Source: Escherichia phage BME3
Sequence record: PP239276.1
Length of the DNA stretch: 64,000 nt
Reading direction: 5' to 3' (one strand)
Positions 14,007 to 30,559 of this stretch are shown piece after piece (within the stretch, counting starts at the first letter, position 1; the number at the start of each line of letters is the position of its first letter). The notes beneath the pieces were generated by a model. The model was given only the letters and a program-made list of their open reading frames with translations, was not told the origin of the DNA and did no database searches. A program made the translations under genes and the position numbers.

Positions 14007-14029
14007 AAAACCCGCCGAAGCGGGTTTTT
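14007..14029. terminator. bidirectional terminator aaaacccgc-cgaa-gcgggtttt
   Basis: Perfect GC stem flanked by A- and T-tracts; follows stop of 14044..15171 (-). Confidence 0.6.
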
Positions 14030-14043
14030 ATTTGCTGGCTTAC

Positions 14044-15171
14044 TTAAAACACACTTGCCAAAGTTGCACCATTGGTGATAGTTGGTTCCAGAACAATACG
14101 GAAAGAATCTTCTGGATCATCACTAAACACAACGATTTTACCGCCTGTGATAAGATCTGCTTTCATTTTTGTCGCATTCAATGGAATTCGAGCATCGCCT
14201 TCATCATCAAAAACCACGTAAGAGCTATTAGCAAGGGCTTCTTTAGAGTCTGCATCACTTGGAGATGACAAGTACACGTCTAGTGTGCACGAACCACCTA
14301 AAAAGATTGCAGGTGTAAAGTTATGCCAACTAGATACCCAGCTAACTTTCTGAAGTTTTCCATTAATAACAACGCTGCTGATATCCCATTTATTACCACC
14401 ACCTAAAGAAACGCCCATCATAGAGATGCATTCTTTAAAGGATAAATCAGGGTAGAAATTAAGTTCTTCTACTATACCTTGGATCACATCAAAGGACAAC
14501 TCTAAACTTACATCCCAAAGTCTTTGGAAATTATCAAAGTGTGCTTTGTTATCCAGGTTTTTATCTAAATAGTCAATCATAGTTTCTAGTGAGATTTTAT
14601 CATAATTAAAATTATAAAACACACGACTAGGACGATTTAAAAAGAATTCAGAGATAAAACCACTGTTTTTAGTCAGAATAAACAGTTTATTACCACTGCC
14701 AGTACCATCTAACAAAGTGAGAAGTGCTTCTTGATCTTGTTTCTTCTCATACACTTTATCAAACTCGTCAAAAATAATCACTGCTTTGTCGGTGATCTTG
14801 CTAATAAGTTCAATGAAATTAGCATCGCTGTAGGCTTGAGTAACCATAATAGTTGGAATACCTTCTTCTACAAGGTCACGACTAATGAGTTTGGCTAACA
14901 TAGTTTTACCACTGCCCTTAGTTCCTGTCAGGAGCAAACCTGTATTTTTACCTTGTGCACTCCGGCGATGGAATGTACGAATAACGTGATTTGCTCGTTT
15001 TTCTGTTTCACCATACAGAACATCCGGTACACCTGTTAGATTACCACGGCTTAAAAAATAATTGCCAAGGGGATCACGACTAACAGTATAGAATCCAGGT
15101 GGAAGATAGTTAGATTCCACGCCCATATCTTTATTTACACTTACAATATCACCATAAATCGTGTATTTCAT
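14044..15171 (-). CDS. classic-clade AAA ATPase (paralog A)
   Basis: Walker A GTKGSGKT, Walker B IIFDEFDK, LLTLLDG, sensor-1-like FILTKN. Confidence 0.7.
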   Translation of the reverse strand: MKYTIYGDIVSVNKDMGVESNYLPPGFYTVSRDPLGNYFLSRGNLTGVPDVLYGETEKRANHVIRTFHRRSAQGKNTGLLLTGTKGSGKTMLAKLISRDLVEEGIPTIMVTQAYSDANFIELISKITDKAVIIFDEFDKVYEKKQDQEALLTLLDGTGSGNKLFILTKNSGFISEFFLNRPSRVFYNFNYDKISLETMIDYLDKNLDNKAHFDNFQRLWDVSLELSFDVIQGIVEELNFYPDLSFKECISMMGVSLGGGNKWDISSVVINGKLQKVSWVSSWHNFTPAIFLGGSCTLDVYLSSPSDADSKEALANSSYVVFDDEGDARIPLNATKMKADLITGGKIVVFSDDPEDSFRIVLEPTITNGATLASVF

Positions 15172-15182
15172 TTTAACCCCTT

Positions 15183-15620
15183 TTATCTTTGTTGAGATGA
15201 ACGAATTAAATCAGCAGCAAATTCAATCAGATACACTTTTGGTGCAATAATAATTTTTAGCCAATCGAAATTCGAAAAGAAAATAATAAATCCTAAAAGG
15301 AAAAAGAAAGCAGAGACAACAAGACCAACAATAGGTAAAGCAGATACTCCACCATAGCGATCTCGTGACCACAGGCATTCTTTATCTTTAATTGCTTTTA
15401 TGAGGTTCCGCACAGCAATAAAAGCAATAAACATAAAGCAAATACCAAAAAATTGCCATAAACCTGCGGATACTGCTTTCCACATTAATAATTGATGGAT
15501 TACTTCTGGAATTTGTTGTTTTCCAAACTCTACAACATCACTCATTGTTTGAATAGTGACGTTAACCATGTTCAGAAGTACATCCGTTGCTTTATCTGCG
15601 ATTGCGTTTGTTTTACTCAT
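15183..15620 (-). CDS. membrane protein (145 aa)
   Basis: ORF track; hydrophobic helices (WQFFGICFMFIAFIAV, ALPIVGLVVSAFFFLLGFIIFF). Confidence 0.6.
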   Translation of the reverse strand: MSKTNAIADKATDVLLNMVNVTIQTMSDVVEFGKQQIPEVIHQLLMWKAVSAGLWQFFGICFMFIAFIAVRNLIKAIKDKECLWSRDRYGGVSALPIVGLVVSAFFFLLGFIIFFSNFDWLKIIIAPKVYLIEFAADLIRSSQQR

Positions 15621-15634
15621 TCTTTATTCCTCAC

Positions 15635-15808
15635 TTACCTTTTAAGGAAACCAATCATAATGAAGAACCACATCCATGCAGGAGAGATAATAAAGCCAAA
15701 GAAACCGCAAATAACCGCTTTCTTAATCTCTTCCAGACAACCCACCAGGAAAAGAACGAGTGAGACTACAATCCAGATAGCCATAAACACTGTAACAAAG
15801 AAACTCAT
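15635..15808 (-). CDS. possible 57-aa membrane peptide
   Basis: Hand-translated (MSFFVTVFMAIWIVVSLVLFLVGC...); RBS gggagaaagg. Confidence 0.35.
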   Translation of the reverse strand: MSFFVTVFMAIWIVVSLVLFLVGCLEEIKKAVICGFFGFIISPAWMWFFIMIGFLKR

Positions 15809-15828
15809 ACCTTTCTCCCATCTGTATT

Positions 15829-16080
15829 TTAAAATTCAATCACCACTTTATCGAGGTGCTCTGCTTCAACTTGATCTAATGTTAACACCTCAACTAAACC
15901 CTTGTCAATACCTAATTTAATAACATCAACATATTGTCCAAACAGATCCTGGATAGATATCTTGTGTTCGACAACAACCACCACTTCATTCCCTTTTGTG
16001 AATTCTCTCCATACACGTCCACATTTGAAAATAAAGTCTGCTTCGTCTTCTGTTATCATTTTAGGTTTGATACTTAACAT
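15829..16080 (-). CDS. hypothetical protein (83 aa)
   Basis: ORF track. Confidence 0.55.
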   Translation of the reverse strand: MLSIKPKMITEDEADFIFKCGRVWREFTKGNEVVVVVEHKISIQDLFGQYVDVIKLGIDKGLVEVLTLDQVEAEHLDKVVIEF

Positions 16081-16631
16081 TATAAAACTCCGTACTCCGG
16101 CTCAAAATCATATTTTTCACAAATCATGTCCCAGCGTTCGTTGCCGAAGCTGCGACCACAAATTGCATCGTAAGCATAATGCTCTGCTAACCATTTTACA
16201 ACAGTGTCTACATCATTATCAAGTGATAATCTGAATTCTTTGCCATAGCGCATACGAAGAACAAATTCATCCCCTTCTTCAAACAAGTGCATATGGCTTT
16301 TTGCATAAGAAGCCAGGTTGAAAAAAGATACCTCTTCCCAGCATTCTTTTTCCACTGCAATCCCGTGATCAACAACTAAAGCACCGATAACGCGATACAT
16401 AATAGGGCTAAACAGTGCGCTTGAGCTAGGCTGCTCTTCAACTATAGACCAACCTGTTCCCTGCCAAATTTCATTTTTGAACCATTGTTCCATGTTATTT
16501 CCTTTTTCGTCTACAAGGGATCGGTTACGCATTTCAAACCATTCCCCTTCGCAAAAGTATTTATGTTTAACACGTTTACCTTTTAACATTGCTTCTTTGG
16601 CTTCTACCCAAGTCAGATCGGTGTTTTGCAT
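16080..16631 (-). CDS. hypothetical protein (183 aa)
   Basis: ORF track 16080..16691 trimmed to ATG at 16631 (MQNTDLTWVEAKEAML) with RBS gaggag. Confidence 0.6.
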   Translation of the reverse strand: MQNTDLTWVEAKEAMLKGKRVKHKYFCEGEWFEMRNRSLVDEKGNNMEQWFKNEIWQGTGWSIVEEQPSSSALFSPIMYRVIGALVVDHGIAVEKECWEEVSFFNLASYAKSHMHLFEEGDEFVLRMRYGKEFRLSLDNDVDTVVKWLAEHYAYDAICGRSFGNERWDMICEKYDFEPEYGVL

Positions 16632-16663
16632 TCGTTTATCTCCTCTCATTTGTGTATGCATTA

Positions 16664-16691
16664 AGATTAGCACAATAAAACAGTATGTCAA
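16664..16691 (-). promoter_or_regulatory. sigma70-like promoter for minus block 16631..12428
   Basis: TTGACA (16686-16691), 16 nt, TAATCT (16664-16669). Confidence 0.45.
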
Positions 16692-16747
16692 TACTTGATC
16701 TGAAATTAGTTTCTGGTACTCTGTGTGTATCGTAACAAAAGAGGTAG

Positions 16748-17041
16748 ATGATGAACATTACTTTAGCAACTAAGAATATTTCTGAAACAATTAACGGTTT
16801 TGGTGTGATTGTAGCCTTGCACGGTAACAATGAGAAATGGTTGGCTTCTTTTGAAGAGGATCGGCAGCACAACATCATTTTAGACGCTCCTATAAAAGTT
16901 ATGCATATTGTTGGTGAAAGCAAAGTGCTCACTTCCTCCCGTTCAAGGGAACAAATTACAAATGAATTAGTAAAACTGCTTGACAATGTTCTTAACATGT
17001 TTGATGATGCTCCCACCAACACAAAACGTGTCTTAATGTGA
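16748..17041 (+). CDS. hypothetical protein (97 aa)
   Basis: ORF track; RBS aaagaggtag. Confidence 0.55.
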   Translation: MMNITLATKNISETINGFGVIVALHGNNEKWLASFEEDRQHNIILDAPIKVMHIVGESKVLTSSRSREQITNELVKLLDNVLNMFDDAPTNTKRVLM

Positions 17042-17053
17042 GAGGAGAACCAA

Positions 17054-17341
17054 ATGTATTATTCACAAGACGAAGTAGCAAACATTAAACTGGCAGTGGG
17101 CGATCTTATTGTGTCACCTAACTACTATTGGGATAACACAGATTTAGTTGAAGTAGTAACCTATGTTGGAGTTGAAGGTATTGTGCTCTACACACTAGGT
17201 GGAGGTGTTGTTGGGGAAATGGAACGTTATACGACAACGAAGAAACTGGTAAGCTCTTATCACATGTTTTTACACCAAGGTTCGGAAGAGTATACAGCTT
17301 TCTTGTTGAAATTAGATGCAGATCGGGAGAAGGCACGATGA
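17054..17341 (+). CDS. hypothetical protein (95 aa)
   Basis: ORF track. Confidence 0.55.
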   Translation: MYYSQDEVANIKLAVGDLIVSPNYYWDNTDLVEVVTYVGVEGIVLYTLGGGVVGEMERYTTTKKLVSSYHMFLHQGSEEYTAFLLKLDADREKAR

Positions 17342-17691
17342 AAATTGTACACGATGAAATTCAATTTGAAGAGAGTGATCTTCTTGATCTGGATGTGACA
17401 CTAAGTAAACTGATCTACAATGCACTTTCTGCGTATCGTGTAAAAGTGATAGCCACAAACAATGTTAAAATTCCTAGTGGGTTACTTCGTCGGATGTACC
17501 CACACGCTAAAGGTGATTATCTACCTTATATGGAAGAACGAGCAGCAGAACACTGGTTAGAAATTCTTGAAAAAATGGAGTCTTCTTTTAAGGACTCAAC
17601 TCCACCAGAAGAAGTTAATGAAAAACAGCGGCAAGATCGTTTAGAAGGTCGCATTTTGTTTGCTAAGTATTTTCATAACCTGTGGATGTAA
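17338..17691 (+). CDS. hypothetical protein (117 aa)
   Basis: ORF track; ATGA overlap with upstream gene. Confidence 0.55.
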   Translation: MKIVHDEIQFEESDLLDLDVTLSKLIYNALSAYRVKVIATNNVKIPSGLLRRMYPHAKGDYLPYMEERAAEHWLEILEKMESSFKDSTPPEEVNEKQRQDRLEGRILFAKYFHNLWM

Positions 17692-17703
17692 CAAGGAGTA
17701 AAG

Positions 17704-17859
17704 ATGGTTATCTACAAAAATAAGTTCACTGGCTGTCTGCGTAAATTTATTGACAAAAAAGGGTATGTTTCTGTTGACAATGGTGTTACGTGGGTGCAGA
17801 ATGGCACTTCAGAACAACTGGTCAAGGCTTTACCTTACTACGAGGAGTTTACAAAATGA
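17704..17859 (+). CDS. possible 51-aa protein
   Basis: Hand-translated; RBS caaggag; ATGA overlap with next gene. Confidence 0.35.
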   Translation: MVIYKNKFTGCLRKFIDKKGYVSVDNGVTWVQNGTSEQLVKALPYYEEFTK

Positions 17860-18056
17860 CAGAATGGGTAAAAGTAGAAGATCCATACGATATCCCACTA
17901 GGTGAGTATGTGGTGGTAATGGAAGATGGTGGAAAGGGGTATTGTGAAGTGCATAAAAGTATGTCTGGTAAGATTATTGTGGTGAACCATCATTTTCACT
18001 TTGATTACCCTCCTATTGTGGCATATATGCCTTTACCTAAATATGAAGGGGATTAA
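17856..18056 (+). CDS. hypothetical protein (66 aa)
   Basis: ORF track 17790..18056 trimmed to ATG at 17856 with RBS aggagtt. Confidence 0.5.
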   Translation: MTEWVKVEDPYDIPLGEYVVVMEDGGKGYCEVHKSMSGKIIVVNHHFHFDYPPIVAYMPLPKYEGD

Positions 18057-18203
18057 ATGTTATTCTTTAGACTTAATATTGCTTTCTGTTTGTTTGCAAA
18101 CATTGCATTCTGGGTATTAGGTAGTGTAAAATTAGGCTACTTCTTTACTGTACTGCAAGCTATTTGTTTAGCTGGTCAAATAATCACTAAGGGGCGAGTA
18201 TGA
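18057..18203 (+). CDS. possible 48-aa membrane peptide
   Basis: Hand-translated (MLFFRLNIAFCLFANIAFWVLGSV...); TAA-ATG and ATGA coupling to neighbours. Confidence 0.4.
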   Translation: MLFFRLNIAFCLFANIAFWVLGSVKLGYFFTVLQAICLAGQIITKGRV

Positions 18204-18628
18204 CACAACAAATCCAAGACAAATTTAATGAACTCTATCCAGCAAGCGAAAGCGGCACTCATAACGTGCGTAAATCGCTCTATAACGTCTTTAAAGCCGG
18301 ATGGGAGGCTTGCCTTCAGGCTCAAGAAGAACCAGCGTCAGGGACGCGTAACGGCTTTTATATCCCGATTGTTGAAAGTGAGGAAGGATGGGGTAGCAAA
18401 CATGATGGTTATATGGTAGGATTCACCATAGAAGATCTTGAAGAACGCCGTAAAGTCTTTGAGGCAGCTAATACAGAAAAGTATGGCTACTATTATGAAC
18501 GACCTGTTCGTTACATTCCTGTTGTGCTTAGTCCTAAAGCTGTTGAAACAATATCTGCAACAGAAAAAGAAAGGACTCGCCATTGTGTATGGTTTGATGA
18601 TATTGACGATTTTCGATTTGGAGAATAA
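18200..18628 (+). CDS. hypothetical protein (142 aa)
   Basis: ORF track. Confidence 0.6.
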   Translation: MTQQIQDKFNELYPASESGTHNVRKSLYNVFKAGWEACLQAQEEPASGTRNGFYIPIVESEEGWGSKHDGYMVGFTIEDLEERRKVFEAANTEKYGYYYERPVRYIPVVLSPKAVETISATEKERTRHCVWFDDIDDFRFGE

Positions 18629-18631
18629 TTT

Positions 18632-18904
18632 ATGAAAAATAAACACCCTTACTATAAACTATTGCATGTACTGCGCCGATTGCGCAATAAACAGATTGAA
18701 GATTTCCGTCACTTCAAACGTGATCGTGTGAATCGTAAGTGGATGGATCATCGTTTCTTCTCTTTAACTGTACGTAAGTTCCGTGAAGAGATTAAGAAGA
18801 CAGACCAGGTAATTGCAGGTGCTAAACGTGCAATCTCTATGTCAAAAATCACAGGTGTAAATCATATGTACGACTTCAAAACAGATTCTGTTGTACCTAT
18901 GTAA
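18632..18904 (+). CDS. hypothetical basic protein (90 aa)
   Basis: ORF track. Confidence 0.55.
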   Translation: MKNKHPYYKLLHVLRRLRNKQIEDFRHFKRDRVNRKWMDHRFFSLTVRKFREEIKKTDQVIAGAKRAISMSKITGVNHMYDFKTDSVVPM

Positions 18905-19068
18905 AAGTATTTTGTAAAGTTTTGTGGAGAGTATTGACTTTTTCAGAAAAACATGCTACCCTAAACCTGAAAGGTGACGAGCGAAGCGAGTTAGTATTCT
19001 CTATAGATATTGTTCCTGTCACTCATGGAGGGGCAGGAACAGAGTATATTACTGTATAGGAGAATACT

Positions 19069-19335
19069 ATGGATGTTACTACACTAAGGTTTATACTTCT
19101 CTTCTTACTTATAGTTATAGGATTAATTGTTATACCCTATCTATATGTCTACATGTTATCTCGTAAGTATGGTTATGATCGTATACCATTTTACTATTTA
19201 ATACCTGTCTTAGTTATCTATCTATTTCTCTTTTGTAGATATTGTCCTGAATTAGTTCCTGAACATTGGAAGTTAGAACCTGTTGAAGTTTACCATTGTG
19301 AATGGAAGACAGAATACAGATCTAACAGTAATTAG
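19069..19335 (+). CDS. membrane protein (88 aa)
   Basis: ORF track; TM-like LRFILLFLLIVIGLIVIPYLYVYML; RBS aggaga. Confidence 0.55.
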   Translation: MDVTTLRFILLFLLIVIGLIVIPYLYVYMLSRKYGYDRIPFYYLIPVLVIYLFLFCRYCPELVPEHWKLEPVEVYHCEWKTEYRSNSN

Positions 19336-19395
19336 TTATTGACTCTATCTACTAAATAATCTAGACTCTATGTAAAATTTACTAAGGAGACTACT

Positions 19396-19560
19396 ATGCA
19401 AAACATTTCTATCACTAAAACAAAAAGATCTGTACCTAAACTTACTCACTCTACATACCCTGTTATCATCCGTAAAGGAAAAGAATGGATTAAAGATGAT
19501 CATGGTGGTTATGTAGAAGTGTCAAAGCTGAAAGAAGCAGAAGTTAACTTTGTACGCTAA
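19396..19560 (+). CDS. possible 54-aa protein
   Basis: Hand-translated; RBS aggaga. Confidence 0.35.
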   Translation: MQNISITKTKRSVPKLTHSTYPVIIRKGKEWIKDDHGGYVEVSKLKEAEVNFVR

Positions 19561-19570
19561 GGAGTAGACT

Positions 19571-19864
19571 ATGACTGAAGAATTTAAGCAATGGTTTGAT
19601 AAAAACTTTCCACCACATATGTGGCCTAACGAAGAAGAACGTCAAGAAGTGATGATCTACACTTGGCTTGCCTGGCGGGATGGTATCCGTAGCAAAGAAG
19701 CCCAGGAAGAGGAACCTATTGCTTACATCTTTAAACATCCAGCAGGTAAGTTGTTTTGGGCTTTAACAGATGAAAGTAATAAAGATCATGATGATGTTAT
19801 TCCTGTATATACCAAGAACAATGTAAAGGATCAATCAGATGACAATGTACAGCATATGGGGTAG
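19571..19864 (+). CDS. hypothetical protein (97 aa)
   Basis: ORF track; RBS aaggag. Confidence 0.55.
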   Translation: MTEEFKQWFDKNFPPHMWPNEEERQEVMIYTWLAWRDGIRSKEAQEEEPIAYIFKHPAGKLFWALTDESNKDHDDVIPVYTKNNVKDQSDDNVQHMG

Positions 19865-20321
19865 AATGGGCGAAGACCATGATTACTATTGCTTGAAAAG
19901 TAATGTTGAACAGGCAGATGTTGATAAAATCATAAAGCACTACCTAAAAACGTGGCGTGAAGTGGAGTTTAGAGAGTTTGCTATCCTCCATAGTCAAGAA
20001 GGAGAAAAGGAGATAGACATGAGTACACTAACTAAAGCAGTACAAACGCATAAAGAATATGAGGAAGCAGTTAAAGATGAAGTAAACCCTACTTCACTGA
20101 CCTTCGAAAACCTTACCCCTTTGTTTTGGTCATATGATGGTAATGAAATTTTTACACATGATACACCAGAGGCTGTTAAAAATTGGGAAGGCTGTTGTAA
20201 TTCCTATGAGGTGTTATATGTCGTAGAAGAAGATGATACGTACATTATGTTCCGCATAGATAACGGTTGTGGTGATCAATGGGACATTGTTCTTTCTAAA
20301 CATTTGCAATTGGGTGGTTAA
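19839..20321 (+). CDS. hypothetical protein (start uncertain, 19839 or 19868)
   Basis: ORF track. Confidence 0.5.
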   Translation: MTMYSIWGRMGEDHDYYCLKSNVEQADVDKIIKHYLKTWREVEFREFAILHSQEGEKEIDMSTLTKAVQTHKEYEEAVKDEVNPTSLTFENLTPLFWSYDGNEIFTHDTPEAVKNWEGCCNSYEVLYVVEEDDTYIMFRIDNGCGDQWDIVLSKHLQLGG

Positions 20322-20322
20322 A

Positions 20323-20685
20323 ATGCTAAAGTACCTGATGATCACTTGGTTATGCTTACTTTCATTTGCGGGACATGCAACAGAGGGTTTTAAACTTGGT
20401 GCTGACGGTACTAAATTCTTTACATATTGGGGTGGGAAAGCCTTATACCAAGAAGAAAAGAATAGCATAGAGTGTACGGTTAGTAAGAAGATTAAATCAG
20501 TAGATCAATATGGGGATGCCTATACTGGTGTAGGTTTTAACTGTGGAAAAGATTTATTTCTATTTGTTAAGAAGTATTTAGATGTTAACCTTGTATTGCT
20601 TATTGTTGTAGATCCTGCTAAGTTTGAAGAGCGTAAAGCATATCGTGCAGATATGTTCTTAGAATATGATGATAAGGAGAAATAA
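20323..20685 (+). CDS. secreted protein (120 aa)
   Basis: ORF track 20269..20685 trimmed to ATG at 20323; signal-peptide-like MLKYLMITWLCLLSFAGHA. Confidence 0.55.
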   Translation: MLKYLMITWLCLLSFAGHATEGFKLGADGTKFFTYWGGKALYQEEKNSIECTVSKKIKSVDQYGDAYTGVGFNCGKDLFLFVKKYLDVNLVLLIVVDPAKFEERKAYRADMFLEYDDKEK

Positions 20686-21036
20686 ATGCTTGATGTAACT
20701 ATTAATGGTGTTAAATATATCCCTTATGTAGAGAAAAGCAATCCTGATGCCCTGGATGTTATGTTTGAGGATTCAGATCTTGGTACTGTCACTGTACGGG
20801 AATATTTCCGACAACTACTCTCTACGTTATGGAGAGAAGAAGAGTGTTTTAATGGTAAACGTCCATTTGGTAACTCATGCTGGCAATTTGATATGATCCG
20901 CGCCTTAATTGAGGCAGGGTATATTGAAGGTACAGTTGTGTACGATGAAGATGGATATCCAGAAGAAACTGACTACGACAGTAAAGAAGCTAATAAATTT
21001 ATACAAGGCTTGATCGCGCAGATGTGTTTGGGTTAA
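20686..21036 (+). CDS. hypothetical protein (116 aa)
   Basis: ORF track. Confidence 0.55.
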   Translation: MLDVTINGVKYIPYVEKSNPDALDVMFEDSDLGTVTVREYFRQLLSTLWREEECFNGKRPFGNSCWQFDMIRALIEAGYIEGTVVYDEDGYPEETDYDSKEANKFIQGLIAQMCLG

Positions 21037-21037
21037 T

Positions 21038-21424
21038 ATGAAAGTATTAAATTTTTACCACTTAGGTAAAGTAATACCTGAAGGTGCAGTGTACATTGGC
21101 AGAGCTATGCCTCATATGGGGTTAAAAGCCTCAAAGTTTGCAAATCCTTTTAAGTTAAAGGATGATGAACCACGAGGATCAACTATACAAAGATATAAAG
21201 AGTGGTTGTGGGAACAAATTCGTTGTGGTAAAATCACTCTTGAGGATTTGTTAGAATTGGAAGGGAAAGACTTAGTTTGCTTCTGCTCACCTCAACCTTG
21301 TCATGGTGATGTGTTGGTAGCAGCGGTTGCTTGGGCTAGAACAGAGTGGGATAAAAGGCATCCTACTTACACAGATGATTATTGGATTTGGGAGGATATT
21401 TATGAAGACTACACAAGAAATTAA
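21038..21424 (+). CDS. hypothetical protein (128 aa)
   Basis: ORF track. Confidence 0.55.
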   Translation: MKVLNFYHLGKVIPEGAVYIGRAMPHMGLKASKFANPFKLKDDEPRGSTIQRYKEWLWEQIRCGKITLEDLLELEGKDLVCFCSPQPCHGDVLVAAVAWARTEWDKRHPTYTDDYWIWEDIYEDYTRN

Positions 21425-21767
21425 CGTATTTGATCTGTCAGGTTTAGATATGGAAAAAGCAACCCTGTATCATCACGATAAAGATAACATTACGTACATC
21501 TACATCGGAGCAGATAAATATAACATTCCTGAAAACTCCCTAGCGGTAATGAAGGAAGGGGATATGCCTTTGCAAGAGAAGATGCTTGGTTTTTCCTTTC
21601 GTCAAGATGTTAAGATGGATGGTGTTATTGCTGTCTTCCAGGTGGACGAGTTTTATATGGTTACTTTTGTCACACCAAATTTCACCAATATCAATGGGGA
21701 AGAGGCAGCAAACGATGTTATTCTTCTAACGTTGGGTAATGCCTTAAAAGATTTAGAAAACGTTTAA
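21402..21767 (+). CDS. hypothetical protein (121 aa)
   Basis: ORF track 21327..21767 trimmed to ATG at 21402 with RBS ggagga. Confidence 0.5.
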   Translation: MKTTQEINVFDLSGLDMEKATLYHHDKDNITYIYIGADKYNIPENSLAVMKEGDMPLQEKMLGFSFRQDVKMDGVIAVFQVDEFYMVTFVTPNFTNINGEEAANDVILLTLGNALKDLENV

Positions 21768-21788
21768 TAAACCAATAAGGAAAATATA

Positions 21789-22304
21789 ATGTTTTTTGAT
21801 GCTCAATCTCCACTTGTTGACTCTGTAAGCAGAGCGGTAATATATCCAGACTTTGATGAAAGAGAAATATGGCTTAAGGAACACCATTATAATCCAGAAA
21901 ATGTCAACTGGTGCAATCTGGATGTTGGTAAGTATTCGCGAGATAAGGGCATCTTGAAATATTATGCTTGCTATACGGTGGATAACATCTATGAATACTA
22001 TGTGTTTCGTAGTTTGATTATCCATCTAAATAAATTGGGTGCTCTAACAGGGGATTCTCAATTCACTCTAGGCCACTATAAACCATTTAAGAAAGGTGGA
22101 GAGCACTTTCCAAGCAATTGGATTATACAAACATTAAAAGATAATTCTCGTGCTAGTGATGTTATCCCGGACAAAAAAGAAAAGTGGACATGGCATGAGC
22201 AAATGGAGTATATTATACAACATATGCCACAACGTGTATTGTATGAGGAAAAGTTGGTCAACCGTTGTGCCGAGTTAATACAAATTGTTAAGGGGTTTTA
22301 CTAG
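21789..22304 (+). CDS. hypothetical protein (171 aa)
   Basis: ORF track. Confidence 0.6.
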   Translation: MFFDAQSPLVDSVSRAVIYPDFDEREIWLKEHHYNPENVNWCNLDVGKYSRDKGILKYYACYTVDNIYEYYVFRSLIIHLNKLGALTGDSQFTLGHYKPFKKGGEHFPSNWIIQTLKDNSRASDVIPDKKEKWTWHEQMEYIIQHMPQRVLYEEKLVNRCAELIQIVKGFY

Positions 22305-22312
22305 GGGGAAAT

Positions 22313-22789
22313 ATGTCTAAACGTTTTGGTCGTAATCAAAAAAGAAAGTTAAATGCGCAACTAGCAGCTTTGCAAAAAGAGGTTAACACTTTACAAAAAA
22401 GTGTTTGTGAACTTAAGGAACAAAACCAACTTGAAAAAGAGTGTATTCAGCTTACACAGGAAGTTATTGGGGAGTATTTCCCTTCACTAATTCCTAAGAA
22501 GGTGGCTCTTAGGGAAAATCTACCTTTTACCTTATCCTTGATGCAAACAAGGGATAGATTCCAAACTGAAACTGATGATTTGATGTTTGCAATGCATCAA
22601 TTACGTGGTTTAGAATATACAGCACAAGTGGATAAACTTCGTAACATGCTATATGTGCGGGTAGAAACACCTAAAGGTGAGACAGTAGCGTTTAATTATA
22701 ATTTCCAACAGCTACCTGATCATATTATTGAACAAATTTTAAAACGAGATTTTGTTCCTATGCTTGTTAAACAAATTAAGAGAGGTTGA
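22313..22789 (+). CDS. hypothetical protein with coiled-coil N-terminus (158 aa)
   Basis: ORF track. Confidence 0.6.
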   Translation: MSKRFGRNQKRKLNAQLAALQKEVNTLQKSVCELKEQNQLEKECIQLTQEVIGEYFPSLIPKKVALRENLPFTLSLMQTRDRFQTETDDLMFAMHQLRGLEYTAQVDKLRNMLYVRVETPKGETVAFNYNFQQLPDHIIEQILKRDFVPMLVKQIKRG

Positions 22790-22790
22790 A

Positions 22791-24527
22791 ATGGCTAAGA
22801 AAGAGTTGAGTTTTACTCCAACAGAAGAGCAAACAGCTATTAAGGAGGCTTTTCCAGATCATCGGTTTTTAACTATCCAAGCTAAATCTGGATCAGGAAA
22901 AACGTCAACACTTTATTTGCTGGCTAACAGTACAGAAGATCGCATTCTTTACTTAGCTTTCAATAAAAGCATGGCAGAAGAAGCACGGCGTAAGATGCCA
23001 CCAAATGTAGAATGCCGTACATTGCATTCCATTTGCTATCAATTCCTGGATCATCGTTTACGTGCAAAACTGTCACGACCAGAAGGACAGTATGTTAACG
23101 TTGCAGGTACAGGTAGCGAGATAGCAAAGAAATTTAAGATTAATAATCTTATTGATAAACGAGGGAAAACACTGTTAACTCGTGCTATGATTGGTTTAAT
23201 GATCAAGCAAACCGTAGGTAAGTTTGAATTTTCGGATGATCCTTTTATCAGCCGTAAACATTTTCCTAGTGTACATCTTGCAGATATTAAAAGAAAAGGT
23301 ATTAACGAACACAAACTAATTACAGAAGTAGTTAAGTATGCAAAACAATTGTGGCGAGAGCGCATCGATCCTAATACAGATACTTTGATGACGCATGACA
23401 CCTATGTAAAATTGTTTGAATTGTCTGGTGCTGATCTTGGTTATGATATTATTTTTGGTGATGAATTCCAAGATGTTAACCCTGCATTCTTGTCTATTCT
23501 GCGAAATGCTAAATCTGCAAAACAAGTAGTAGTGGTGGGTGACGAATATCAGAGCATCTACCAGTTCCGTGGAAGCCAAAATATGATGAAGGAAACATCT
23601 ACATATGGGGCAGAGCTTCCATTAACTGCTTGCTTCCGTTTTGGCCCCAAAGTGGCAAACATTGCCAATATGATTTTAAGCGATAAAGAACCTTTGCGTC
23701 ACCCTTTGGTTGGTAAAGGCTTTGATACTGTAGTAGGTAGCTACAAATCAGATGTTGTAGACTATACAAAACCTTACACTATCATCTTTCGCAAGAATTT
23801 AACCTTGCTTATGGAGGCAATGGATCGTATTGCAGATGGGGAAGAAATTATTATTAACGTAGATACCAGGGATTTTATCTCTATGGTAGATAGTGTTAAT
23901 GCTCTTCGGAGAGGAGATATTGAGAAAGTAAAACATGAAACTGTATTACCTTACGCAGACTGGAATGAATTTGTTGAGTGTGCAGAGGCTGATCCAGATG
24001 CTAAACGCTTGTTAAACATCGTAGTTTCTGGTAAGGCAAACACTATAGCACATACACTTAGAACGCATAGAAATTCTCCTACAGCAAAAGTCACACTAAC
24101 TACAGCACATAAGTCTAAAGGTTTGGAGTGGGATCAGGTTATTGTTGCTAATGATTTTCCTTCCAACTATGATAAAAAGACTGGTGAATGGGTAGGACTG
24201 GAAGAGGCAGAGCGAAACCTGCTGTATGTAGCACATACCCGTTGTGTTAAATGCTTACAATGGAATACAACCGTACAGGAGATTATAGATATCAATCGTG
24301 TTGCAACAGAGAAAGTACCAACAAGCACCACTTTACCGATCAATGGTATTAAACTTGGTGTATTTGGCGCTGGCACATCTCGAAAAGCTGTAGAAAAATT
24401 TGTTGCAGATTCTTTTGATGGTAACTATAATCATGCACAAGCATATGAGAGTTGGCTAGAGGAAGGTGAAGGTGATTTTTTAGGTGAAATAAATCTTTTA
24501 CCAGATATAAATAAACTGGTAAACTAA
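22791..24527 (+). CDS. SF1 DNA helicase, UvrD/RecD-like
   Basis: Walker A AKSGSGKTST, motif II IIFGDEFQD, C-terminal TAHKSKGLEWD; start trimmed to ATG 22791. Confidence 0.75.
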   Translation: MAKKELSFTPTEEQTAIKEAFPDHRFLTIQAKSGSGKTSTLYLLANSTEDRILYLAFNKSMAEEARRKMPPNVECRTLHSICYQFLDHRLRAKLSRPEGQYVNVAGTGSEIAKKFKINNLIDKRGKTLLTRAMIGLMIKQTVGKFEFSDDPFISRKHFPSVHLADIKRKGINEHKLITEVVKYAKQLWRERIDPNTDTLMTHDTYVKLFELSGADLGYDIIFGDEFQDVNPAFLSILRNAKSAKQVVVVGDEYQSIYQFRGSQNMMKETSTYGAELPLTACFRFGPKVANIANMILSDKEPLRHPLVGKGFDTVVGSYKSDVVDYTKPYTIIFRKNLTLLMEAMDRIADGEEIIINVDTRDFISMVDSVNALRRGDIEKVKHETVLPYADWNEFVECAEADPDAKRLLNIVVSGKANTIAHTLRTHRNSPTAKVTLTTAHKSKGLEWDQVIVANDFPSNYDKKTGEWVGLEEAERNLLYVAHTRCVKCLQWNTTVQEIIDINRVATEKVPTSTTLPINGIKLGVFGAGTSRKAVEKFVADSFDGNYNHAQAYESWLEEGEGDFLGEINLLPDINKLVN

Positions 24528-24537
24528 GGGGGTTAAA

Positions 24538-24789
24538 GTGGCAGGGTATCATTTGAAGGAGATTAGCAAAGAGGACTATGGTTCTGTTGCTAAGATTCAA
24601 GAAGAGCTTTATGAACTTCAGGATGCTATTGATCAAGATTGCAAGCTGATGCAACTTATTGAGTTATCAGATATTGTAGGCGCTGTTGAAGGTGTTCTTG
24701 AACAGCATTTTCCTGATATGACGCTTCAAGATTTGATCACTATGTCAAACATTACTAAACGTGCATTCCGCAGCGGAGGTCGATCATGA
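24538..24789 (+). CDS. MazG-like NTP pyrophosphohydrolase (small all-alpha type)
   Basis: IQEELYELQDAI and downstream acidic motif resemble MazG EExxE/ExxD pattern. Confidence 0.4.
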   Translation: MAGYHLKEISKEDYGSVAKIQEELYELQDAIDQDCKLMQLIELSDIVGAVEGVLEQHFPDMTLQDLITMSNITKRAFRSGGRS

Positions 24790-25358
24790 ATGTTGCAGTA
24801 ATAGCTCAAGCTATTGATTACTATGGTCGGTTTGCACAAATGTTGGAAGTTCCATATCTCGTGGATGCTGATATACTGGCGTACACACTACCAGAAAATA
24901 AAGAGGATCGCCCATTAGGGCATCCTAACGGTAAATACTATGTAGCCAGTGCAGAACAATCTTTCCTGCAAATGGAGAAGGATGGTTTTGAATTTGCAGC
25001 AGGTAATCCGTATATGGCACTAACACCATGTTACCGTACAGAAGAAAATTTAGATGATACTCATTTTAATATTTTCTTGAAATTGGAGTTGATTGAGTTC
25101 TACCCTGATGCTACAATTGAAGAGTATGCTAACGCTATGCGCTGTTTCTTCTCTACTTATTATGGAGTTAAAACATATTTAGTACCCACTAATATTGGGG
25201 TTGACGTAGAGGATGAATATGGTTTAGAATTAGGTTCATTCGGTATGAGGGAGTCTCCAAAAGGTCATCCTTATATCTATGCAACAGGTATTGCAGAGCC
25301 TAGGGCTTCACTGGCAATAAACCGTGTTGTAAACAAGACTCAAAGCATTAGCAAATAA
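24786..25358 (+). CDS. hypothetical protein (190 aa)
   Basis: ORF track; no confident motif. Confidence 0.55.
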   Translation: MNVAVIAQAIDYYGRFAQMLEVPYLVDADILAYTLPENKEDRPLGHPNGKYYVASAEQSFLQMEKDGFEFAAGNPYMALTPCYRTEENLDDTHFNIFLKLELIEFYPDATIEEYANAMRCFFSTYYGVKTYLVPTNIGVDVEDEYGLELGSFGMRESPKGHPYIYATGIAEPRASLAINRVVNKTQSISK

Positions 25359-25370
25359 GAGGAGAATAGA

Positions 25371-25805
25371 ATGTCTATTGTGACACAAATGAAAGCAGAT
25401 CGTATCTTAGCACGTACAACCGATAAGGGTGCTTTTGCTTTGTTAACTAATATTATTGGTGAGTTTGACCTTGCTCGTACTCAAAAGGCAAATCTAAACA
25501 AATCAGAAGACGATATTATGATTAACATTGTTAAGATTGGTATTGCACACGCTAAAGAGGAACTAGACTCGCTTAAGAAAGTTAATGCCTCCATTAGCAA
25601 ATGTGAGCGAGCTATGCGTGATATCACCACTCTGGAAAAATATTTGCCAGAAATGCTATCTGAAGATGATCTTCGAGCTATTGCTGAAGAATTTGCCTTG
25701 ACAGGCAAGAAAATGCCAGATATGATGAAACACCTTAAAGCAGAGTATCCGAATCAATATGATGGAAAACTTGCTTCTACCATTGCAAAAGAAATTTTAA
25801 ACTAA
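25371..25805 (+). CDS. GatB/YqeY-domain protein
   Basis: KYLPEMLSEDDLRAIAEEF and C-terminal GKLASTIAKEIL fit YqeY family pattern. Confidence 0.55.
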   Translation: MSIVTQMKADRILARTTDKGAFALLTNIIGEFDLARTQKANLNKSEDDIMINIVKIGIAHAKEELDSLKKVNASISKCERAMRDITTLEKYLPEMLSEDDLRAIAEEFALTGKKMPDMMKHLKAEYPNQYDGKLASTIAKEILN

Positions 25806-25822
25806 TTTAGAAGGAGAACATA

Positions 25823-26773
25823 ATGATTGCATTTTACGCTAATAAACTGGAAGTTAAAAAAGCAGCAGAAGAGATGGGTATCCTGCATATTCTTAACGAA
25901 GCAATTCACAAGAGTTTTGGTTACACAACTGAAGCAGAAATCAATGATCTGATTCACAGTGTTAATGATTTGTTCTTCTACCCTAACTTCCTACAGCAAT
26001 TAGATGGTTGTGGATTTGAATATATGGAGCTTCATCCTGAATATAAATTTATGGAAGTAACACCTGAAGGTTTTCTGGAGATTATTCGTACTGAATATCT
26101 TGCTAAAGAGGATAAAGAAAAAGATATGGCTGAAAAAGTACAACTGACTGTGCATAATACGTGTTTCCTGGATACTGATGCCACGGAAGAAGATATTAGT
26201 TATCTGCTTTCCGTTTGTAATTCTCGTTGTCCACAACCACATTGGAAAAATGCAGATCATTATCTGATGTATTCAACTGAAGAAAACATTACTTTCTTCG
26301 ATGAAAACAGTGGTATTAATGGTGCACATAAGAATTCTCCATATAGGAAAGATCGGTTTGTAGTTGATGTAAAAACATTTACTAAACTGTTTGAGGAGTA
26401 TTATTCAAAAAATGAAAGTAAGACTGAATCTTCACCAAAACCACGTTTTCGCCGACCGCGTAAACCTGTGCCTACTCGTTCTGTAAGCTATGTTCGTATC
26501 ATTTACACTACGCAGCAGGTATATACTCTTAAGAACGTAAGTGCTCTTACTGTACAAGAAGATGCAATTAATATTGTGCGCAATAATGTTATTACAGAGG
26601 GTATTGAGGAAAAGATTATGTCTGTTATCGATCCTAAACTTGTTATGGCAATCATTATTAATGAACCAAAAGGTGTAACAACATTGTTCCGAAATATTCA
26701 TGGCACTTGGGAAACTCAAGTTGACGGTTTGACTTCTGACGGTTGTACACGTATTACCAAAAACCTTGACTAA
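25823..26773 (+). CDS. hypothetical protein (316 aa)
   Basis: ORF track. Confidence 0.6.
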   Translation: MIAFYANKLEVKKAAEEMGILHILNEAIHKSFGYTTEAEINDLIHSVNDLFFYPNFLQQLDGCGFEYMELHPEYKFMEVTPEGFLEIIRTEYLAKEDKEKDMAEKVQLTVHNTCFLDTDATEEDISYLLSVCNSRCPQPHWKNADHYLMYSTEENITFFDENSGINGAHKNSPYRKDRFVVDVKTFTKLFEEYYSKNESKTESSPKPRFRRPRKPVPTRSVSYVRIIYTTQQVYTLKNVSALTVQEDAINIVRNNVITEGIEEKIMSVIDPKLVMAIIINEPKGVTTLFRNIHGTWETQVDGLTSDGCTRITKNLD

Positions 26774-26820
26774 GATCAAGGACAATCTTACGAAAAAGAT
26801 TTAAAATAAAGATCCACCCT

Positions 26821-26848
26821 AAAGCCAGCTTAATGCTGGCTTTTATTT
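26821..26848 (+). terminator. hairpin terminator aaagccagc-ttaat-gctggcttt
   Basis: T-rich tail; between 25823..26773 and nrdD. Confidence 0.5.
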
Positions 26849-26862
26849 TCCACGGAGGATTA

Positions 26863-28662
26863 ATGACCCAAAAACTATATGAGGATGTAATCGGATTCCT
26901 CGAACAAACATCCGAAGAATTTACTCGTGAAAATGCAAACAAACCTGCAATGATTGTTAATACTCACCGAGATTTACTAGCAGGTATCCTAAGCAAGCAC
27001 ATGGCAATGACCCATATTTTACCTGAAGATTTAGCAGAATGGCATAAAAGTGGGTATGGTCACATCCACGATTTAGATTATTTACTCTCACCTTTAACTA
27101 ATTGTTGCCTGGTAAATTACCAAGATATGCTTGAGAATGGTTTCCGTATTGGTAATGCACATATTGAAAAACCAAAATCTATTGGCGTAGCAACTACTGT
27201 CCTAACTCAAATTATTCAAGCAGTAGCTTCTAGCCAATATGGTGGACAAACTTGTGCACATATTGATACTGGGCTTAGTCAATACGTTAAAGCAAGTTTT
27301 AATAAAATATATGCCGATGTTGGCGATTATGATATTGCTATGCGTATGGTAGATAAACAGGTTTACGATGCAATGCAAACTTTAATCTACCAGGTGAACA
27401 CCCTAATGAGTGTAAATGGTCAGTCACCTTTTATAACAATTAGTTTAGGTTTGGATACCTCTGCTTTTGGTAGAATGATCACTAAAAACTACCTAATGGT
27501 GCACAAACAAGGATTAGGAAAAGATAGGGTAACTCCTGTGTTTCCTAAAGTTATCTTCTTCTTAGAAGATGGTGTTAACATGAAAGCTGGCGATCCAAAC
27601 TATGATTTGAAGCAACTGGCAATGGAGTGTTGTGCTGAACGCATTTATCCTGATTTTATCTCTGTACCTTTAAACAAAGAAGTTACAGGATCTTCAGATG
27701 GTCGCGTCACAAGCATGGGTTGCCGTAGTTTCTTGTCATACTATGCAACAGAGCAAGGTGAAAAGTATGATGGTCGTTTCAACTTAGGTGTAGTTTCTTT
27801 AAACTTACCTATCATTGCAGCAGAGTCCCGTGAAAAAGGCATCTTATTTACTGAACTGTTGGAACAACATATGGAGATGGCGTATAAGGCACATATGCTA
27901 CGTGTTAACCGTATCAGACATACCAAAGCATCTCAAAACCCTACATTGTTTATGGAAGGGGCTTTAGCTCGACTAGAAGCTAATGAAGAGATTGGTAAAC
28001 TATTTGAAGGTGGTTATGCCTCTATTAGTATCGGTTATGTAGGTTTAGCAGAAGCTATGGAAATTTTATACCCAAATAACACCAATCCAAAAGCAATGGG
28101 TAAAAACATCCTTCAATATATGAAGGATATCTGTTGCACATTTAAAGAACGTTCTGGTTTAGCTTTTAGTTTGTATGGAACACCAGCAGAATCCTTGTGC
28201 TATAAATTTGCCAAAGCGTTAAATGATCGCTATCCTGGTTCTATTGATCGTGACTACTTGACAAACTCTTTCCATCAACCTGTATGGATGCACACTACCC
28301 CGTTCCAAAAATGGGATTATGAGGAAGGTTTTGCACAAATTAGTAATGGTGGGAACATAGGTTATGTAGAAACACCAAACCTTAAAAATAACTTGCAAGC
28401 ACTGGAAACTCTTGTAGATTATGCCTACAACAAAATTCCTTACTTTGGCGTGAACCAACCTGTAGATCAGTGTTTCAAATGTGGTTTTCATGGTGAATTT
28501 AAGGCAACAGCTAAAGGCTTCGAGTGTCCAAGTTGTGGTAATCATGAAGAAGAATCTATATCTGTGATCAGAAGAGTGTCAGGATACCTTTCTGCCCCTA
28601 ACTCTCGCCCTTATAATAAAGGTAAAATGCAAGAGGTACTAGAAAGGGAGAAACACTTTTGA
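26863..28662 (+). CDS. nrdD: anaerobic ribonucleoside-triphosphate reductase (class III)
   Basis: C-terminal Zn ribbon CFKCGF...CPSCGN and glycyl-radical motif RRVSGYL; start trimmed to ATG 26863 with RBS ggagga. Confidence 0.85.
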   Translation: MTQKLYEDVIGFLEQTSEEFTRENANKPAMIVNTHRDLLAGILSKHMAMTHILPEDLAEWHKSGYGHIHDLDYLLSPLTNCCLVNYQDMLENGFRIGNAHIEKPKSIGVATTVLTQIIQAVASSQYGGQTCAHIDTGLSQYVKASFNKIYADVGDYDIAMRMVDKQVYDAMQTLIYQVNTLMSVNGQSPFITISLGLDTSAFGRMITKNYLMVHKQGLGKDRVTPVFPKVIFFLEDGVNMKAGDPNYDLKQLAMECCAERIYPDFISVPLNKEVTGSSDGRVTSMGCRSFLSYYATEQGEKYDGRFNLGVVSLNLPIIAAESREKGILFTELLEQHMEMAYKAHMLRVNRIRHTKASQNPTLFMEGALARLEANEEIGKLFEGGYASISIGYVGLAEAMEILYPNNTNPKAMGKNILQYMKDICCTFKERSGLAFSLYGTPAESLCYKFAKALNDRYPGSIDRDYLTNSFHQPVWMHTTPFQKWDYEEGFAQISNGGNIGYVETPNLKNNLQALETLVDYAYNKIPYFGVNQPVDQCFKCGFHGEFKATAKGFECPSCGNHEEESISVIRRVSGYLSAPNSRPYNKGKMQEVLEREKHF

Positions 28663-29129
28663 ATTACGCCGGATATGAACCTGTTGACATGCTCAACGGT
28701 GACGGTGTAAGATGCTCTTTGTGGGTGAGCGGTTGTAGCCACGGTTGCCGTGGCTGCTTTAACCAGAAAGCCTGGTCGTATAACTACGGACAAGAGTTCA
28801 CTGCTGAAACATTAGATCTTATCTTGGAAGATTTATCTAGACCTTTCATTAAAGGATTAACAGTTTTAGGTGGTGAACCTCTTGACAAAGAGAACATTGA
28901 CACTGTAGAGTATGTTCTTGAGAAGGTAAGAGATTGTTTTGGAAACAAAAAAGATATTGTCTTATATACAGGATATCTTTTTGAGGAAATTCCAGAAAAA
29001 ATTAAAAAACTGGTTGACATAGTGATAGATGGTAAGTATGATATGAATCAACCAACAACGAAACGTTATAGAGGTTCAGATAATCAACGAATGTGGATTA
29101 AGAAAGACAACATTTGGGAATCTGACTAA
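28659..29129 (+). CDS. nrdG: anaerobic RNR activating protein (radical SAM)
   Basis: N-terminus MNYAGYEPVD..NGDGVRCSLWVSGCSHGCRGC closely mirrors E. coli NrdG; TTG start overlapping nrdD stop. Confidence 0.85.
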   Translation: MNYAGYEPVDMLNGDGVRCSLWVSGCSHGCRGCFNQKAWSYNYGQEFTAETLDLILEDLSRPFIKGLTVLGGEPLDKENIDTVEYVLEKVRDCFGNKKDIVLYTGYLFEEIPEKIKKLVDIVIDGKYDMNQPTTKRYRGSDNQRMWIKKDNIWESD

Positions 29130-29149
29130 ATTAAATAGAGGAGAAAACT

Positions 29150-30310
29150 ATGTTTACAGTATTCGGCAATCAAATCTTCCTGCGTCAGAAGTCTGGTACA
29201 GATATTGAAGAAATTCCAGCAGGAACTTTTGGTGTAGGTGTTACTCAAAGTGGTGAGTTCTTCCTATATCCTAAAAACGATATGGAAGTCCCTTCAGTAA
29301 CATACGGTGATACTGATGATAAATCAGAACGTATTATCAAGACGTTCCTTAGCCGCAAAGGTAAAAACACAGGTGTTCTCCTTGAGGGTACGAAAGGTAG
29401 CGGTAAAACTTTGCAAGCTAAAATGCTGTCTTCTGCTCTTCGTGAAATGGGTATTCCTACTATTTCTATCGGTAGTGCTTTTAATGGTGAAGGCTTTATC
29501 AATTTTATGTCTAAAATCACACAACCTGTGATGATTATGATCGATGAATTTGATAAACTGTATGCTGAAAAAGATGCACAAGATGGTTTGCTTACCCTGC
29601 TGGATGGTGTTGGTGGCTACGACAAGCTGTTTGTATTGACTAAAAATGATGGTTATGTATCAGAATTTTTGCGTAATCGTCCTAGCCGTATTTTCTACAG
29701 CTTTAGCTATAAGAAACTACCTAAAGCTACTATGGATGACTATCTGGCTAAAAATCTGGAGAACAAAGCCTTTTTACCAGATTTTGAAACGCTTTATAAT
29801 CTCTCCGTGGATTTGAACTTTGATATTGTTCAGTCATTAGTAGAAGAACTTAACCGTTACCCTAATGACAAATTCTCTGATGCACTTGCATTGATGGGTA
29901 TCAGTATTACTGAACACCGCTATGCTGCAAAAGAGGTTAAACTTCTGAAAGTTAACGGTGTAGATCGTACAGGAGATGTTTCGTCAGATACCGATATTGA
30001 CGGTATGACAGCACAAGGTTTGTTTAGCGGTAATCGTTATGTTGTAGCTGTAGACCATAAACTAGGTGAAGAGCATCTTCCTGAAATGGAAGGGATTGTT
30101 ACCGTAGAAGATAAAGATGAAGAAGGTGACTACTACTGGGGTGTAGACCGTATCTTGCTAACGTATGATGAAAAACACATTCGTACAATGGGTGGTGACG
30201 GCTATCACTTTATGTTCACCGATGATAAAGGTAACAACATTGAAGTTGTTATTAAAAACAAAGAACGTAAAAACTACACAGAGTATGTGTTTGGTGGTCG
30301 TTCTTACTAA
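29150..30310 (+). CDS. classic-clade AAA ATPase (paralog B)
   Basis: GTKGSGKT, MIDEFDK, LLTLLDG, FVLTKN; collinear with 14044..15171. Confidence 0.7.
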   Translation: MFTVFGNQIFLRQKSGTDIEEIPAGTFGVGVTQSGEFFLYPKNDMEVPSVTYGDTDDKSERIIKTFLSRKGKNTGVLLEGTKGSGKTLQAKMLSSALREMGIPTISIGSAFNGEGFINFMSKITQPVMIMIDEFDKLYAEKDAQDGLLTLLDGVGGYDKLFVLTKNDGYVSEFLRNRPSRIFYSFSYKKLPKATMDDYLAKNLENKAFLPDFETLYNLSVDLNFDIVQSLVEELNRYPNDKFSDALALMGISITEHRYAAKEVKLLKVNGVDRTGDVSSDTDIDGMTAQGLFSGNRYVVAVDHKLGEEHLPEMEGIVTVEDKDEEGDYYWGVDRILLTYDEKHIRTMGGDGYHFMFTDDKGNNIEVVIKNKERKNYTEYVFGGRSY

Positions 30311-30316
30311 GTGATA

Positions 30317-30345
30317 AAAGGAGGCGAAAGCCTCCTTTATTTATA
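30317..30345 (+). terminator. terminator aaaggaggc-gaaa-gcctccttt plus T-tract
   Basis: Follows stop of AAA paralog B. Confidence 0.6.
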
Positions 30346-30356
30346 TGGAGGGTATT

Positions 30357-30548: not shown

Positions 30549-30559
30549 AGGGGAAGAAA

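Follow-up and report, generated by a model that had tools for sequence, protein, structure and literature searches.

Why would a phage keep two related ATPase genes on opposite strands, some 14 kb apart? The question is raised by a stretch of 64,000 nucleotides (nt) from Escherichia phage BME3 (sequence record PP239276.1; hereafter the window), in which two genes encode proteins of the ATPases associated with diverse cellular activities (AAA) type. Copy 1, at positions 14044..15171 on the minus strand, encodes 375 amino acids (aa) and is the ortholog of phi92 gp221 and BASEL bas60_0109; copy 2, at 29150..30310 on the plus strand, encodes 386 aa and is the ortholog of phi92 gp190 and bas60_0075. 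Both belong to the protein family PHROG 2376. A preliminary description, made from the sequence without database searches, had located both open reading frames (ORFs) with exact coordinates and strands and had read them as collinear paralogs of the classic AAA clade, suggestive of two specialised remodelling activities and, through their homology in inverted orientation, capable of promoting genome rearrangement. The paralogy and the class are borne out by the analysis below, the two activities are plausible, and the rearrangement role is not supported.

The two proteins align collinearly from residue 2 or 3 to about residue 255, with 119/254 identities (47%), 70% positives, and two gaps (BLASTP E value, 2e-81). 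The motifs GTKGSGKT, DEFDK, LLTLLDG, LF(I/V)LTKN, and NRPSR occupy equivalent positions in both. Because the alignment covers 254 aa, the homology goes far past the Walker motifs rather than being confined to them. Each copy also matches PHROG 2376 from end to end (copy 1, residues 1 to 367 of 375, E = 7e-108; copy 2, residues 1 to 376 of 386, E = 6e-104; profile positions 1 to 359 of 363 in both cases). When either protein was searched against the whole window with tblastn, the sole match was the other copy, so no third copy was found. The last ∼120 residues yield no pairwise alignment between the copies (15% identity), but profiles of the two clades are collinear across 100 columns of this region (hhalign probability, 73%; E = 3e-5). 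Between the copies, the identity is thus 47% in the core and 15% in the C-terminal region; relative to the Klebsiella phage orthologs, it is 81% and 58% for copy 1 and 90% and 48% for copy 2. The C-terminal domain evolves much faster than the motor. Codon changes relative to phage PaulScherrer are exclusively synonymous (13 synonymous and 0 nonsynonymous in copy 1, 10 and 0 in copy 2), and purifying selection acts on both copies. The copies are true, anciently diverged collinear paralogs.

The classic AAA clade is the best-supported class for both copies, as the preliminary description had claimed. PF00004 is the sole Pfam family above threshold, with 38.9 bits for copy 1 and 29.4 bits for copy 2 against a gathering cutoff of 21.2. 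When a profile of 77 homologs was compared with PDB sequences, the best 60 matches were all classic-clade AAA proteins (best E, 6e-12), among them Cdc48/p97, VAT, NSF, NVL/Rix7, Afg2, Pex1, and Msp1. The top fold matches (Bcs1, Trip13, NSF-D2, YjoB, FtsH, and Rpt) and the top Foldseek matches of the copy 2 model (Bcs1, Rpt, YjoB, FtsH, NSF, and Mpa) likewise support this class, with whole-protein fold searches being dominated by the AAA module. Matches of residues 201 to 291 to the influenza NS1 effector domain, returned by phmmer at an E value of ∼1e-3, were rejected as spurious and are absent among the top 60 profile matches listed.

The motor itself is intact in both copies. Walker A reads GTKGSGKT in each (14902..14925 on the minus strand in copy 1; 29387..29410 on the plus strand in copy 2), and Walker B reads IIFDEFD in copy 1 and IMIDEFD in copy 2 (DEFDK at 14755..14769, minus strand, and 29543..29557, plus strand); the G, K, D, and E residues of these motifs are invariant across 77 to 79 homologs. 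Sensor 1 (LTKN in copy 1; 14665..14676, minus strand, and 29636..29647, plus strand) and the NRPSR stretch of the second region of homology (14623..14637, minus strand, and 29675..29689, plus strand) follow. In total, the positions invariant in 77 sequences include, in copy 1 numbering, G83, G86, G88, K89, D135, E136, N169, R180, P181, and R183, and the copy 2 counterparts of the last four are the sensor-1 asparagine N166 and R177, P178, and R180. F227, D228, E235, E236, and N238 in the copy 1 lid are also invariant. NRPSR aligns with the arginine fingers of p97 D2 (LRPGR/RPGR), and from these invariant arginines we infer assembly into a ring with ATP hydrolysis in trans. The β2-α2 loop, the putative pore loop 1, has only ∼6 residues (TQAYSD in copy 1 and GSAFNG in copy 2), compared with ∼12 in FtsH or p97, and the pore loop 2 region is ∼12 residues shorter than that of p97. 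The pore-loop aromatic residue, tyrosine or phenylalanine (Y114 in copy 1, F111 in copy 2), is kept in 74/77 sequences.

Structure prediction shows the same flanking domains in both copies. The two AlphaFold2 (AF2) models (predicted local distance difference test score [pLDDT], 83.4 and 84.2) share a three-part architecture, consisting of a five-stranded N-terminal β domain, the AAA α/β subdomain with its lid, and a β-rich C-terminal domain, followed by a low-confidence tail. In copy 1 (model m22ecdbfe5280), the small N-terminal β domain spans aa 1 to 45 (15037..15171, minus strand; pLDDT, 77 to 91), and the α/β subdomain, delimited by motif coordinates and invariant columns, spans aa 56 to 190 (14602..15006, minus strand). 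The helical lid, delimited by AF2 secondary structure and invariant residues, comprises aa 195 to 252 (14416..14589, minus strand), and the C-terminal domain (aa 262 to 365), with a tail ending in ATLASVF, occupies 14047..14388 (minus strand). The copy 2 AAA module (29315..29893, plus strand) consists of an α/β subdomain at aa 56 to 187 and a lid at aa 192 to 248, and its divergent β-rich C-terminal domain (aa 261 to 370; model m2eac550063e9), together with a tail ending in NYTEYVFGGRSY, occupies 29930..30307 (plus strand). Predicted structures (BFVD) of Erwinia, Salmonella, Proteus, Agrobacterium, and Lactobacillus phage proteins show this full-length architecture as well (TM-scores, 0.6 to 0.8). 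The N-terminal domain is covered by almost every one of the top 150 representatives of the family, their matches starting at profile positions 1 to 22 in all cases and 1 to 2 in most. Family matches usually span the N-terminal domain and the AAA module, with variable coverage of the C-terminal domain.

The extreme C terminus follows a pattern of its own. Among 141 family representatives (P0121 to P0261), 77% end in a hydrophobic residue, compared with 35% of controls, and 30% have the motif Ar-[DN]-Ar among their final 12 residues, compared with 2% of controls. The motif mostly lies 6 to 7 residues from the C terminus (e.g., FDYSRLF and FNWANAF). In the window, the tails are located at 14047..14076 (minus strand; ending in ATLASVF) and 30260..30307 (plus strand; ending in NYTEYVFGGRSY). 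These frequencies indicate that PHROG 2376 keeps a conserved tail despite its variable C-terminal domain, and the tail may be a docking peptide for some partner.

The pair is already known, in the sense that it has been deposited and annotated in many phi92-like genomes. A megablast search with either gene or with the whole 17.5-kb segment returned ∼55 Justusliebigvirus genomes at 95 to 99.6% identity, and the identical two-gene arrangement occurs in at least 53 public genomes. Justusliebigvirus, the genus to which the window belongs, comprises phi92-like myoviruses (coliphages) in the subfamily Stephanstirmvirinae. Several of these genomes encode a protein with 100% identity to that of copy 1, and copy 2 shares 98.5 to 99.2% nucleotide identity with public genomes. 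Both phi92 proteins (gp221 for copy 1 and gp190 for copy 2) are labeled "ATPase" in RefSeq, and other records use "putative ATPase or Zn metalloprotease," "FtsH-like protease," or "hypothetical protein." Four entries (MG065639, MG065645, MG065656, and MG065689) bear the name "Campylobacter phage" and list Campylobacter jejuni as the host, and they match 89% of window positions 13500..31000 at 97.5% identity; mistaken host assignments or contamination probably account for this.

Beyond this genus, the family is large. An exhaustive hidden Markov model search recovered 3,220 clusters at 50% identity (E ≤ 1e-30), the matches listed being mostly 350 to 440 aa long. Two copies are present in Justusliebigvirus and in Klebsiella phage phi1_175008, which keeps the divergent layout, and apparently also in ∼150-kb metagenomic contigs, since the longest contigs with a copy 1-type and with a copy 2-type gene have equal lengths in two instances (151,530 and 154,881 bp). 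Phapecoctavirus has the copy 1 ortholog only (64.5% identity). In Phapecoctavirus nieznany (12030..12705), nrdG is followed directly by a 63-aa ORF, equivalent in position to a 67-aa ORF downstream of copy 2 in the window (30345..30548, plus strand), with no ATPase gene at the copy 2 position. Copy 2 is thus a clean presence/absence difference between sister genera. The nrdD gene of this phage is annotated as two coding sequences split by an inserted gene.

A neighbor-joining tree built on the core joins the copy 1 clade, which contains phAPEC8, as sister to the copy 2 clade, which includes an intermediate 368-aa group, with only 54% bootstrap support; a clade of jumbo phage proteins (GAP32/CBB) lies outside both. 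The distance between the copies equals that of each to the jumbo phage proteins (47 to 48%), which makes the event that gave rise to the pair an old one. Either duplication followed by loss in Phapecoctavirus or horizontal acquisition would account for this pattern, in each case before the split between Justusliebigvirus and the Klebsiella phage lineage. The intermediate 368-aa ATPase is found on a 154-kb Logan contig from SRR10882646 (10001..11107) and shares 53 to 56% core identity with each copy. Its gene belongs to the helicase arm and is 2.2 kb away from the strand switch; no second copy occurs within the 21 kb covered, and the contig may represent a single-copy arrangement.

What, then, do the two proteins do? 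Given the paralogy and class of the proteins, their intact motifs, their architecture and distribution, and the purifying selection on them, all documented above, we favor, with moderate confidence, the reading that both are catalytically competent ring-forming remodellers of the classic AAA clade, in which the C-terminal domain picks the target and the copies have diverged in their targets. In this reading, the motor combines Walker A and B, the sensor-1 asparagine, two arginines acting in trans, and a short pore loop 1 in which an aromatic residue is conserved, and from the motif integrity and architecture, the most likely mechanism is that a protein target is remodelled or unfolded at the expense of ATP. 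The variable C-terminal domain, predicted to end in a flexible hydrophobic or aromatic tail, would select the target or partner. Since the two copies retain a common motor and have diverged C-terminal domains, each probably has a target or partner of its own, and the earlier suggestion of two specialised remodelling activities is plausible on these grounds.

Several observations weigh against this reading. Because pore loops 1 and 2 are clearly shorter than those of FtsH and p97, canonical threading is not assured. The faster evolution of the C-terminal domain could reflect relaxed constraint instead of target specificity. A substrate is indicated neither by the neighboring genes, none of which is conserved across distant phages, nor by domain fusions, as unusually long family members contain the AAA domain only. 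Finally, the monophyly of the copy 1 and copy 2 clades has only 54% bootstrap support, so that either duplication or horizontal acquisition would fit. Searches for known functions returned little: PADLOC gave no defense system match (the best, mad8, with an E value of 8.5e-4 and 16.9 bits, covers the P-loop only), NCBIfam gave no meaningful family, and in the literature on phi92 and Justusliebigvirus ATPases, phage AAA+ anti-defense, and Herelleviridae AAA proteins, we found nothing about the PHROG 2376 family.

A bolder and rather doubtful extension holds that PHROG 2376 is a large class of "programmable" phage unfoldases that dismantle host defense or takeover targets. A conserved N-terminal domain and AAA motor would be joined to a hypervariable target recognition domain and a conserved docking tail, and phi92-like phages would hold two copies to neutralize two different targets.

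Of the competing explanations, an improbable one that nevertheless survives best makes the copies DNA-associated AAA+ proteins (loaders or switches resembling clamp loaders, Hda/DnaC, or Orc/Cdc6) that function in phage replication instead of remodelling proteins. It is opposed by the uniformly classic-clade affiliation of the best 60 PDB profile matches and by an arginine motif that is RPxR, as in p97 and FtsH, with no SRC motif. The C-terminal domain is β-rich and forms neither a helical collar nor a winged helix, and the scores for alternative families fall far under the curated cutoffs. We give little credence to the idea that the copies are redundant in function, with no effect beyond a higher dosage, or that one of them is decaying. 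Motor motifs and overall architecture are indeed alike in both, but the divergence is old (47% identity in the core, 15% in the C-terminal region), each copy has only synonymous changes between close relatives, and each is kept in Justusliebigvirus, in the Klebsiella phage lineage, and in metagenomic contigs.

The position of copy 2 invites a third explanation, namely, that it is dedicated to the neighboring anaerobic ribonucleotide reductase, NrdD/NrdG, which it would assist, activate, or maintain. The gene begins 20 nt past nrdG and is directly followed by a terminator-like hairpin with a 9-bp stem, five GC pairs, and a T-rich tail (30317..30338, plus strand); a second strong terminator-like hairpin (9-bp stem, five GC pairs) lies at 26821..26843 (plus strand). 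Both come from a consensus scan only, in which the regional site count was not above the shuffled expectation. As the two hairpins flank the nrdD-nrdG-ATPase block, they suggest a discrete transcription unit. The adjacency is not conserved in relatives, however: copy 2 of the Klebsiella relative follows another gene, without nrdDG in between, Phapecoctavirus has nrdD-nrdG with no ATPase gene after it, and family members in other phages have unrelated neighbors. A dedicated role in ribonucleotide reduction is therefore very unlikely.

The proposal that the inverted homology could drive genome rearrangement does not withstand comparison. It is true that homologous genes lie in inverse orientation 14 kb apart, as would be expected if the pair served mainly as an inverted repeat promoting inversion of the intervening ∼14-kb segment. 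The codon-aligned nucleotide identity, however, is 56.5% over 256 homologous codons, no identical run exceeds 16 nt, the best local match in blastn has 69% identity over 241 nt, and a repeat finder gave no inverted repeat between the genes. Homologous recombination requires longer identical tracts than these. Moreover, in at least 53 relatives, the 13500-31000 segment (17.5 kb) maps collinearly to a single location, all on the same strand; no inverted isolate was seen among them, and the Klebsiella relative has the same layout. Given such short tracts and the observed collinearity, the two genes differ too much in DNA sequence for recombination between them to be plausible, and a rearrangement role lacks support. 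No effect of the inverted orientation on recombination can be demonstrated, and we regard such a role as barely tenable. Weakest of all and practically untenable is the idea that these are FtsH-like ATP-dependent zinc metalloproteases, which draws on the public labels and on the presence of the FtsH AAA domain among the fold matches and is refuted at the sequence level: Pfam gives no match to Peptidase_M41 or another protease, there is no HEXXH motif, neither Pfam nor PHROGs gives a membrane or signal peptide family match, the AF2 models start with a soluble β domain, and the FtsH similarity is confined to the AAA module. Neither copy contains a protease domain, and public records that call them "FtsH-like protease" or "Zn metalloprotease" are in error.

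The surrounding genes were described correctly beforehand, with copy 1 near a membrane protein gene and a NADAR gene and copy 2 directly after nrdD-nrdG. Immediately upstream of copy 1 lies a gene for a 145-aa protein with two predicted transmembrane segments (15183..15620, minus strand; hydropathy analysis), a homolog of which precedes copy 1 in Klebsiella phage phi1_175008 and is not present in phAPEC8, CBB, Bcp1, or LAh_6. The 67-aa ORF downstream of copy 2 likewise has a homolog after copy 2 in the Klebsiella phage. Among the phages compared, these two genes are common only to the window and the Klebsiella relative. When phAPEC8, Klebsiella phage phi1_175008, CBB, Bcp1, LAh_6, and the 154-kb metagenomic contig were examined, no neighbors were found to be conserved beyond close relatives.

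On its other side, copy 1 is separated from the YbiA/NADAR gene by a 329-aa ORF (12980..13969, minus strand) with a CapR homology domain (two matched stretches) and a T5orf172 endonuclease-like domain. The gene at the equivalent position encodes 467 aa in PaulScherrer and is labeled "endonuclease" in phAPEC8. Since the gene differs among relatives, the interval between the ATPase and YbiA/NADAR genes has the look of a variable endonuclease slot, probably a mobile one. Copy 2 is followed by genes for a HAD-family hydrolase and a ComF-like phosphoribosyltransferase (30700..32224, plus strand; PF15610, E = 4e-41) and a macrodomain gene; in relatives, macrodomain and TerC-like genes occur further on, consistent with a "Ter-like" nucleoside-metabolite module.

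The copies belong to two divergently oriented gene arms that meet, in the ORF layout, at a strand-switch intergenic region (16692..16747), with copy 1 on the minus arm and copy 2 on the plus arm. The divergent layout is likewise annotated in PaulScherrer, phAPEC8, and Klebsiella phage phi1_175008. Location among small uncharacterized genes in these arms suggests early or middle expression. The region between the copies also contains a UvrD/Rep-type helicase ORF (22752..24527, plus strand; at most 591 aa) without an intein. Its PaulScherrer ortholog is a 2,775-nt coding sequence with an annotated 1,041-nt intein, and intein presence in the helicase thus differs between close relatives.

For the window itself, the significance of these results is small, because the genes are conserved and already deposited and the recombination role fails. 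The family is another matter. It is large (∼3,200 clusters at 50% identity), occurs widely among large virulent phages, and is functionally uncharacterized, and its conserved motor and tail, combined with a C-terminal domain that evolves fast, offer concrete handles for finding targets. Should the target prove to be a host factor involved in defense or takeover, the family would merit study.

Unlike Cdc48/p97 D2, NSF, Rix7/NVL, Msp1, FtsH, and Rpt, the phage proteins have a single ∼200-aa AAA module with markedly shorter pore loops 1 and 2, and their N- and C-terminal domains are unrelated to classic-clade N domains, the protease domain, or oligonucleotide/oligosaccharide-binding rings, with Pfam matches only in the AAA region. 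Bcs1 and YjoB share 15 to 19% identity with them, and the AAA module alone aligns (∼250 aligned columns in the Bcs1 match); in contrast to Bcs1, neither phage copy has a BCS1_N Pfam match (E ≤ 1) or a detected transmembrane anchor. The bacterial Trip13/Pch2 of the cyclic oligonucleotide-based antiphage signaling system (6p8v) differs in its flanking domains, gives no sequence match in PADLOC or Pfam, and has no counterpart here to its HORMA partner, none being encoded nearby. Clamp loaders and RFC are set apart by their SRC motif, which the phage copies lack along with anything other than a β-rich C-terminal domain, and give weak generic AAA+ matches only. From the PHROG 2376 "ATPase" family, which has no assigned function, the two copies do not differ: both are members, together with phi92 gp190 and gp221 themselves, phAPEC8 gp014, CBB gp602, GAP32_367, Bcp1_221, and LAh_6 gp128, and the order of N-terminal β domain, AAA module, and C-terminal β domain is the same in BFVD models. 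With the classic AAA clade as a whole, they share Walker A and B, the sensor-1 asparagine, the RPxR second region of homology, and the lack of a sensor-2 arginine, and the phage LLTxLDG helix corresponds to the "LLtemDG" stretch of that clade.

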